From an uncultured Gammaproteobacteria bacterium (GTDB lineage: Bacteria > Patescibacteriota > Microgenomatia > UBA8517), in the NCBI GenBank assembly GCA_964429215.1, contig CAYSAY010000003.1, forward strand, positions 8,369 through 72,368: a DNA stretch of 64,000 bases, written 5' to 3'. The notes beneath the pieces are model-generated. The model was given only the letters and a program-made list of their open reading frames with translations. It was not told the origin of the DNA and made no database searches. The first letter of the stretch is position 1; the number at the start of each line of letters is the position of its first letter. Made by a program: the position numbers and the translations under genes. Of this stretch, positions 21,072 to 21,952 are shown piece by piece.

Positions 21072-21952
21072 CTGTAATTAATATATAAGTTTTTGGGGTG
21101 TGTGTCAATCACATTGTGCGACACTGTAAGTTAATAAGTTTTCACGAGTGAAACATTTGATAGGGGAGGAGTCCCCTGCTGAAAATCGAATTTTGAACTT
21201 TTTAAGTAATATCTTTTGCTTGATAATTACAGAATTTAAAATTTAAATATATTAATAGAATTTTAATAAATATTTTTAAAACATTTTAATTAATAAATTT
21301 ATATAAATATTGCTGTATATATACAAAATAATTTGTTGTCTATGGAGGAATCACCAAATCGACCTGCCTGCCGGCAAGGCAGGTTTTAAGGCCACAGATA
21401 TGACCTCCTGTAGTCGATTCTAACATGTGTGTTTTGCAAAAGACGACTAGTACATCCTTTGCATATAATCCCGTATTTTAGGGACAATACACGACTTCTC
21501 CGGTTTTTAAAATTTAGGGGACTTATAGAGCAATTACAGGCACAAATAGTTAGATGCTTATAGAAAGATAAATATGGTCAGAAATAGCAGTAAACATCAT
21601 TGTATATAAAGAAATAAATAGAATCATAAACAAAGTTTTTAGAAAAACTTCAAAACACCACACTACTCTCAGCACTATATTATACGTCGTAAAAGTATTA
21701 TTGTGCGACATATAATTTATCAAGAATTTTATAGCGTTAACTAAGAGGATTACTTAGATGGCACCTTCTTGATCAATGAAGTAGTTGCATAAGACTTTAA
21801 TTATAATCTTCTTGTTATATAAGTTACTTCTCTGAGGTTGTATAACAATACTTATCCACAACAGTATCAAACTATATCATTTCGTGAAAACTCTCTCCCA
21901 CTCCGTGAAAATGCTAACAATATACCCTATAATTATTATGGGGTACTTTCCC
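21072..21952. other. 880-bp gene-free AT-rich region holding a GC-rich structured island (about 21343-21545) and one perfect DnaA box
   Basis: No ORF above 60 aa. Nested perfect hairpins sit in the island, with TTATCCACA at 21852-21860. Confidence 0.5.

Follow-up and report, generated by a model that had tools for sequence, protein, structure and literature searches.

The core of a dif site, the target of Xer recombinases, has a common geometry of two 11-bp arms and a 6-bp centre (PMC5357621). In Helicobacter and Campylobacter (XerH/difH), in archaea (XerA/dif) and, as reported, in the Legionellales, the core is lineage-specific and nearly palindromic and is served by one recombinase (PMC5357621, PMC5241119, PMC9765430), and in XerS-difSL recombinase gene and site form a linked module, for which autoregulation has been proposed (PMC1914069, PMC5357621). 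Integrative mobile elements exploiting Xer (IMEX), such as CTXphi, VGJphi and TLCphi, carry a dif-like core, lack an integrase and depend on the Xer of their host (PMC5357621, PMC4246890). The subject here is an 881-bp gene-free gap next to a xer gene in 64,000 nucleotides of contig CAYSAY010000003.1, a whole stretch that is referred to as the window. Judged from its sequence and that of its relatives, this gap is with a probability of roughly 80% the dif/Xer locus of a Microgenomates chromosome (Woesebacteria-like; Candidate Phyla Radiation, CPR), a lineage-specific module at the replication terminus. The gap, its two neighbours and the proposed site are located as follows:

21072-21952, 881 bp: gene-free gap between xer and the DUF5656 gene
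20139-21071, minus strand: xer, gene for a XerD-like tyrosine recombinase of 310 amino acids
21953-22732, minus strand: DUF5656 gene
21684-21711, minus strand (the xer strand): dif-type core, ATGTCGCACAA-TAATAC-TTTTACGACGT, with inverted arms in 11-6-11 arrangement

The gap is the window's longest between open reading frames (ORFs) of at least 100 amino acids, the runners-up having 786 and 686 bp, and it lies on the upstream side of the recombinase gene, which is on the minus strand and ends the gap at 21071; both points had been made in an earlier note on this DNA. Inside the gap there are only three ORFs of 44-57 amino acids, none of which is conserved, and in a near-identical public contig the gene callers place no gene in the equivalent gap. 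Recurring 71-amino-acid ORFs near the site in related loci proved to be mutually unrelated, and a small-ORF reading of the gap was rejected.

For comparison, 80 loci (L002-L081) were fetched around xer orthologues from metagenome-assembled genomes (MAGs) of Woesebacteria and other Microgenomates. The earlier note had singled out a GC-rich island and a DnaA box, not the 28-bp core, and it is neither of the former that is most strongly conserved but the segment of about 28 nt at 21684-21711, which is 90-100% identical across the compared loci. The core was found in 70 of the 80 loci, as one full site per locus of about 9 kb and always co-oriented with xer, upstream of which it lies at a distance of 302-3773 nt with variable genes (NUDIX, NT5C-like, hypothetical) being tolerated in between. 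The loci in which core and xer are so linked and co-oriented span an entire order-level clade. The consensus is ATGTCGYACAA-TRWWAC-TTTTRCGACGT, in which the arms ATGTCGYACAA and ACGTCGYAAAA are identical at 9 of 11 positions. Counts per position over 71 distinct sites show sharp edges of conservation: GTCGYACAA and TTTTRCGAC are invariant (Y/R positions aside), the central four bases vary, and the single C-versus-A difference between the arms is kept throughout. The degenerate positions Y5 and R20 vary independently, all four combinations being common, which argues for two protein half-sites rather than an RNA helix. A search at up to 6 mismatches found no other core in the 64 kb, and the left arm occurs twice in the window, both times in the gap. 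It should be noted that all evidence for the dif reading is comparative and that the uniqueness of the site refers to the 64-kb window and to the loci of about 9 kb. The XerD-like recombinase, encoded 610 bp downstream, is predicted to bind the 28-bp core and to exchange strands there, and by this exchange dimeric chromosomes would be resolved to monomers at the terminus of replication.

The xer product has the Pfam domain Phage_integrase and a SAM-like N-terminal domain. Among solved proteins E. coli XerD (1a0p, E 4.6e-45) comes closest to it, and with this protein the catalytic motifs RVSEL, GKG..R, HxxRHS, LGH and IYTHV align as a complete set. Nevertheless, its scores stay below the cut-offs of the NCBIfam models for XerC (TIGR02224, 254 bits versus 335) and XerD (TIGR02225, 253 bits versus 330), and the sole model passed, marginally, is the archaeal XerA/integron-integrase-like NF040815 (223.5 versus 220). 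Across the Microgenomates the orthologues are 55-95% identical, with the identity tracking taxonomy, and they stand in conserved synteny with YebC-DUF5656. A XerC/XerD pair was not found: the window holds one xer, and a tree of the 80 loci shows no separate paralogue clade. Since the tree is one orthologous set, a further Xer paralogue that would have an arm type to itself was considered but rejected. The second xer in the MAG of L012 (L064) falls within the site-linked clade, so that a mixed bin is likely.

With the XerC/XerD-dif systems of E. coli and B. subtilis, which operate with FtsK and its KOPS (FtsK-orienting polar sequences), the locus has in common the 11-6-11 geometry (PMC5357621) and the nearest solved protein. 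It differs from them in arms that are unrelated to the canonical dif consensus and nearly identical to each other, and in that one xer is seen, linked to the site and below both the XerC and the XerD model cut-offs. Like the single-recombinase systems it has a near-palindromic, lineage-specific core, and its protein passes the archaeal XerA model, although the host is a bacterium (CPR). XerA of archaea works without FtsK, whereas a KOPS-like polarity is found here, and the core sequences differ. In protein and in 11-6-11 geometry the locus appears closest to XerD/dif and to XerA.

Upstream of xer there is a promoter, the only convincing one in a promoter scan of the gap (a terminator scan of the gap found none), and next to it a second copy of one arm of the core:

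21103-21108 (-35, TTGACA) and 21080-21085 (-10, TATATT), minus strand: xer promoter with a 17-nt spacer, matching the consensus at 11/12 positions
21113-21122, minus strand: left-arm half-site GTCGCACAAT, abutting the -35 box of xer, a putative Xer operator

The motif TTGTGCGACA, which had been noted earlier to occur twice, is present at 21114-21123 and 21701-21710, and these are copies of the core's left arm. Its 9-mer core occurs twice in 64 kb, both times inside the gap, where 0.26 copies are expected, so that the repeat is beyond chance. The arrangement is not peculiar to the window: in the majority of the 80 loci GTCGYACAAT stands 40-90 nt upstream of xer, with TTGACA 0-5 nt behind it. 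Xer would bind the left-arm copy next to the -35 box of its gene and so regulate its own synthesis. In one locus (L045:8901-8924) there is an extra half-site of left arm plus centre, GTCGCACAATAATAT, 4.9 kb downstream of the xer start and without a right arm.

In organisation the locus is closest to XerS-difSL of streptococci and lactococci because gene and site are linked. As there, site and gene lie together, co-oriented and in the terminus region; for XerS it has been proposed that the recombinase binds near its own promoter and thereby regulates itself (PMC1914069). XerS/difSL is FtsK-guided, as is proposed for the locus here. There are also differences. The protein is XerD/XerA-like and does not reach the cut-off of the XerS model NF003462 (128 bits versus 267). 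The core has 28 bp with a 6-bp centre, whereas difSL has 31 bp with a centre of 11. Site and gene are 0.3-3.8 kb apart and tolerate variable genes between them, whereas difSL is immediately upstream, and the promoter has a separate half-site where the XerS module has the full site.

A tyrosine recombinase adjoining a recombination-type site also recalls the attachment (att) junction at which a mobile element with a recombinase of its own has integrated; the earlier note had named an integrated element among its candidates, with its other end near 18.7 kb. The genes between site and xer, variable among the loci (NUDIX, NT5C-like, hypothetical), and the extra left arm 600 bp from the core would fit such a junction. 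However, no second full core and no matching direct repeat was found either in 18-23 kb or in the window, the search for direct repeats toward 18.7 kb giving chance-level matches only; no element genes are present; the recombinase is inherited vertically, as its taxonomy-tracking identity of 55-95% and its synteny with YebC-DUF5656 indicate; and the extra arm is fixed at the xer promoter in most loci. An att junction is therefore very improbable. What stands of the proposal is the dif-like recombination region, the core at 21684-21711 beside xer; the integrated element ending near 18.7 kb does not. With respect to the intervening genes, 19 related loci (e.g., L013:3205-3942, L018:3178-3933) have a conserved ORF of 230-250 amino acids between xer and a conserved DNA block described below; it is HAD/NT5C-like with a DxDxT motif. 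This ORF is absent from the window, and a search of the AT-rich stretch of the gap detected no pseudogene remnant of it.

That the site lies at a terminus is indicated by a polar DNA motif and by the orientation of genes. In an unbiased search for strand-skewed hexamers GGGGAG ranked top. In the 70 loci with a core it occurs left of the core 193 times on the top and 7 times on the bottom strand, and right of the core 47 times on the top and 241 times on the bottom strand. The polarity persists where gene strand predicts the opposite, which shows that the flip is independent of gene orientation: in minus-strand genes left of the core, taken alone, the counts are 9 top and 1 bottom, in the plus-strand xer gene 5 top and 90 bottom, and in other plus-strand genes right of the site 6 top and 19 bottom (2/7 between site and xer, 4/12 after xer). 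For genes of discordant strand Fisher's test gives p = 7e-8, and 6e-4 without xer. Furthermore, two conserved CTCCCC places inside the xer orthologues use the proline codon CCC, which makes up 5.8% of the proline codons in the window; that so rare a codon is used at conserved CTCCCC places argues that selection acts on the DNA.

In the window GGGGAG is found on the plus strand at 3749, 9437, 9868, 11453, 20375 and 21163, and on the minus strand solely from 21957 on (21957-58131). The flip occurs between 21163/21516 (plus) and 21949/21957 (minus) and so brackets the core, whereas the orientation of the genes switches at 17.7 kb (p = 0.0015 and 6e-5). The nearest copies on the two sides are:

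21516-21521, plus strand: AGGGGA, the first inward polar motif, a perfect GGGGAGGG in many relatives
21949-21962 (minus-strand hits at 21949 and 21957), minus strand: GGGGAG/AGGGGA, the first polar copies beyond the core, which point at it from within the 3' end of the DUF5656 gene

The perfect GGGGAGGG that is the nearest inward copy in many relatives is the E. coli KOPS consensus. As in E. coli, the polar motif that converges on the site is rich in G, and it is often the exact KOPS consensus GGGNAGGG. GGGGAG is accordingly a candidate FtsK-orienting sequence of the Microgenomates, of the type of KOPS or of SRS (SpoIIIE recognition sequences), converging on dif. In nearly all loci the genes upstream of the core run in the direction of xer, and the orientation switches 0-2 genes past xer. 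Both in the window and in the 70 loci the site is thus at a strand-polar switch, with gene convergence nearby. A putative FtsK-type translocase would read the polar motif and deliver or activate recombination at the core.

The same gap had been proposed to be part of a replication origin, with a DnaA box and an AT-rich unwinding element. The features in question are:

21852-21860, plus strand: DnaA-box-like nonamer TTATCCACA, the single exact copy in 64 kb, judged to be there by chance
21181-21342, no strand: filler of 13% GC, unconserved even in the closest relatives

The perfect TTATCCACA, the stretch of 160 bp at 13% GC and the presence of gyrB, gyrA and holB within 20 kb are in favour of an origin. 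The composition is as had been described, an AT-rich flank (21181-21342, 13% GC) beside a GC-enriched island (21343-21545, 43% GC) in a window of 33% GC, and the consensus box is where it had been placed. However, the box stands alone and is of chance frequency: with up to one mismatch there are 21 copies of TTATCCACA in the window versus 22.1 expected, with no cluster. Its surroundings (21850-21892) are conserved in near relatives only, and the AT-rich stretch is not conserved; the blastn alignment of the gap to L002/L003 ends at about 21398, before this filler. Neither dnaA nor dnaN was found among the scanned ORFs, and genes and polar motifs converge at the gap, the latter pointing inward. 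An origin at this place is therefore scarcely credible. The second short motif that had been reported to occur twice, CGTGAAAA, is present at 21883 and 21904. Beside the nonamer, just downstream of the DUF5656 stop, there is also a direct repeat, TTTCGTGAAAA / CCGTGAAAA (21864-21912), conserved in close relatives only (L002-L010, L049).

Copies of the core are not restricted to chromosomes. IMG/VR was scanned for GTCGYACAA-N6-TTTTRCGAC, and at least 120 viral contigs match (L082-L201), where roughly 8 are expected by chance as estimated from base composition; a BLAST search of the core against GenBank phages gave no match. Among the matches listed, 106 of 120 cores are intergenic, conservation is confined to the core of about 28 bp, and a tyrosine-recombinase-like ORF is present in the examined stretch in 3 of 120. 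The commonest neighbours of the core among these matches are large terminase, portal and small-terminase proteins. About 16 of the matches listed resemble bacterial chromosomal fragments beside a FtsQ-like gene, a label given by eye to a protein that has no PHROGs match. The central 6 bp of the viral cores are TATATC, TATACA or TATGTA, as compared with TAATAC in the Microgenomates chromosomes. That a bare core is portable on elements without a recombinase of their own speaks for the 28-mer by itself as the functional unit.

These contigs are reminiscent of IMEX in that at least 120 of them have a bare core. They differ from the known IMEX, which are mostly filamentous phages and genomic islands, in that many carriers encode terminase and portal proteins and are thus tailed phages. 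The viral contigs fit an exploitation of host Xer, and two readings are equally good: the phages would use it for integration, as IMEX do, or for the resolution of phage multimers.

The distribution in phages, where the 28-bp palindrome is intergenic and often near terminase genes, could also be that of a transcription-factor operator, for example for xer and phage genes, the position at the terminus then being a matter of conserved synteny. Indeed, the sequence is palindromic, a half-copy lies at the xer promoter, and in AT-rich members a -10-like TATAAT follows the site. The 11-6-11 arrangement with variable centre and fixed single-base asymmetry of the arms is, however, the signature of a tyrosine-recombinase core. 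There is one copy per locus and none elsewhere in the 64 kb, whereas a regulon would give several; the linked gene encodes a recombinase, not a regulator; and across 70 loci the polarity flips within about 100 bp of the core. An operator of this kind is quite improbable.

On the xer side of the core the conserved DNA continues. It comprises the following parts, of which the first three were seen on the xer strand:

21546-21683, minus strand: spacer that separates core and block, AT-rich and constrained in length
21399-21521, minus strand: conserved block of about 125 bp, the centre of the GC-rich island, with a CTCCCC-type polar motif first, the palindrome AGAYGA-N6-8-TCRTCT and the invariant TTARAATYGATT
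21343-21398, minus strand: island extension that looks like another copy of the block's 3' motif (GGCCTTAAAA...TCGATTTGGTGA), interrupted by the GC hairpin CCTGCC(TGCC)GGCAAGGCAGG
Hairpin arms in the island: CCTGCC at 21367 with GGCAGG at 21378, GGAGG at 21344 with CCTCC at 21404, and TAGTCG at 21411 with CGACTA at 21444

According to a profile hidden Markov model of the island, 44 of the 80 loci have the block, on the strand of xer in every case. Its spacing from the core, about 165 bp, is constrained: the CTCCCC-type motif is 162 +/- 21 nt from the core (29 loci) and the invariant dodecamer TTARAATYGATT 277 +/- 20 nt beyond it. The first element of the block is the nearest inward-pointing polar motif. 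In addition, most loci have a purine-rich, GGGGAG-like GAGAGTAG at +15 to +21 from the right arm (about 21661-21670, minus strand, in the window), and this outward G-rich copy and the inward copy at about +165 bracket the AT-rich spacer. The block of one subgroup has a CCGAA-N7-CCGAA repeat. Around the phage copies of the core the block is not present. The extension at 21343-21398 is lineage-specific and does not align even to relatives with a 90-92% identical Xer. Its GC hairpin CCTGCC/GGCAGG is unique in the window and not a repeated element, and a near-identical GC palindrome at the equivalent place was found in L013 only. The five bases that follow AATCGATT in the block are TGGTG or ACAGA/ACACG and differ even between the sisters L018 and L019; the window holds both versions in tandem at 21346-21425. 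As a dispersed binding site the block motif TTARAATYGAYT was rejected, since it is at chance level in the window, and the 3' part of the block, inspected by eye, did not fit a sigma-70, sigma-54 or sigma-28 promoter.

The hairpins had suggested in the earlier note that the island is a novel structured non-coding RNA (ncRNA), and all three pairs of perfect arms are indeed there. The island, or the whole unit from core to block, would then be an ncRNA gene on the xer strand, with the G-rich motif and CTCCCC, about 150 nt apart, as the closing helix. The unit lies on one strand in 44 loci at constrained spacing, the two motifs pair in single-sequence folds of many loci, the island folds mildly better than shuffled sequences (plus strand, z = -1.6; minus strand, z = -2.6; a 341-nt stretch, z = -3.25), and in some loci a GC hairpin and then a T-rich tail follow the block. 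The terminator-like hairpin after the block is found in about a third of the loci with a mean z of -0.6. Against an RNA speaks that the recommended Rfam search, at gathering score and at E<=10, gave nothing relevant in the window and 16 related loci; ARAGORN found no transfer-messenger RNA. RNAalifold predicted no consensus pairs, neither for the block on both strands nor for the spacer. Covariation was likewise absent: the two best of the named hairpins pair at 79.7% as compared with 80.0% in column shuffles, and the variable pair shows each of the four Y/R combinations. In the relatives the folds are on a par with shuffles (z = -0.5 and 0.0), the G-rich and the C-rich motif are not complementary in the lineage of the window, and both motifs are explained as polar GGGGAG copies. 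A structured RNA is thus unlikely. The block beyond its first element we take to be conserved accessory or regulatory DNA to which protein would bind, on account of its palindromes and direct repeats, rather than a folded RNA. Two loci of Woesebacteria have riboswitches of the SAM (S-box; S-adenosylmethionine) type on the minus strand at some 2 kb downstream of xer (L012:5963-6061; L022:6015-6109), with no counterpart in the window.

Several observations weigh against the interpretation of the gap as a dif/Xer locus. The polarity does not flip at the centre of the core but about 50-150 bp to its xer side. One G-rich copy 15-21 bp past the right arm points away from the core, which accounts for this displacement. 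GC skew in the window follows gene strand and had for this reason to be rejected as independent evidence for a terminus. The genes gyrB and gyrA, which in other bacteria are often origin-proximal, are 10-18 kb away. In 10 of the 80 loci no core was detectable in the fetched flank, and its sequence bears no resemblance to dif of E. coli or B. subtilis. The loci are phylogenetically related and syntenic, so that counts across them are not independent events. Finally, the block, its first element aside, is not accounted for by dif. The core sequence is new, and the system would work like dif/Xer.

In architecture, and in architecture only, the conserved flank would resemble that of the plasmid sites cer and psi, where conserved DNA of constrained spacing extends for a few hundred bp to one side of a Xer core. 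No ArgR, PepA or ArcA boxes were recognised here, however, and the flank is chromosomal. It is a tentative possibility that the DNA between core and xer, over approximately 300 bp from the core, is a dedicated Xer control region, of a kind undescribed for chromosomal dif, and that tailed CPR phages lysogenise through host Xer without an integrase. Outward GGGGAG, AT-rich spacer, inward GGGGAGGG and 125-bp block may be the parts of such a region, which may serve as a stop or loading platform for FtsK, as a topological filter like that of cer/psi, or to encode an ncRNA acting with the recombinase.

Elsewhere in the window there are other long gaps between ORFs, at 30300-31086, which holds a tRNA-Leu(CAA) at 30648-30730, at 44198-44884 and at 13281-13845. 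An ORF of 212 amino acids with an IS200-like Y1 transposase domain (5251-5889, plus strand) lies downstream of gyrB and ahead of a pyrophosphatase gene, and DUF5674 and DUF5656 domains are found among the window's proteins. These domains and the 55-95% identical recombinase orthologues in MAGs of Woesebacteria and other Microgenomates assign the window to the CPR/Patescibacteria.

No paper on a dif site, a Xer module or a FtsK-orienting motif in CPR/Patescibacteria was found in the literature searched. The locus is another case in which Xer and its site travel as a module. The 28-bp core together with the polar hexamer is a direct marker of the terminus for closing and checking genomes of uncultured CPR bacteria, and genetic tools for organisms that are hard to manipulate could use the core as a site of integration or resolution. 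It is also a handle on phages that possibly use the recombinase of their host. Something more unusual could lie in the fixed architecture adjacent to dif and in the copies on phages. There may be a large, unrecognised set of tailed CPR phages that lysogenise via host Xer and lack an integrase.

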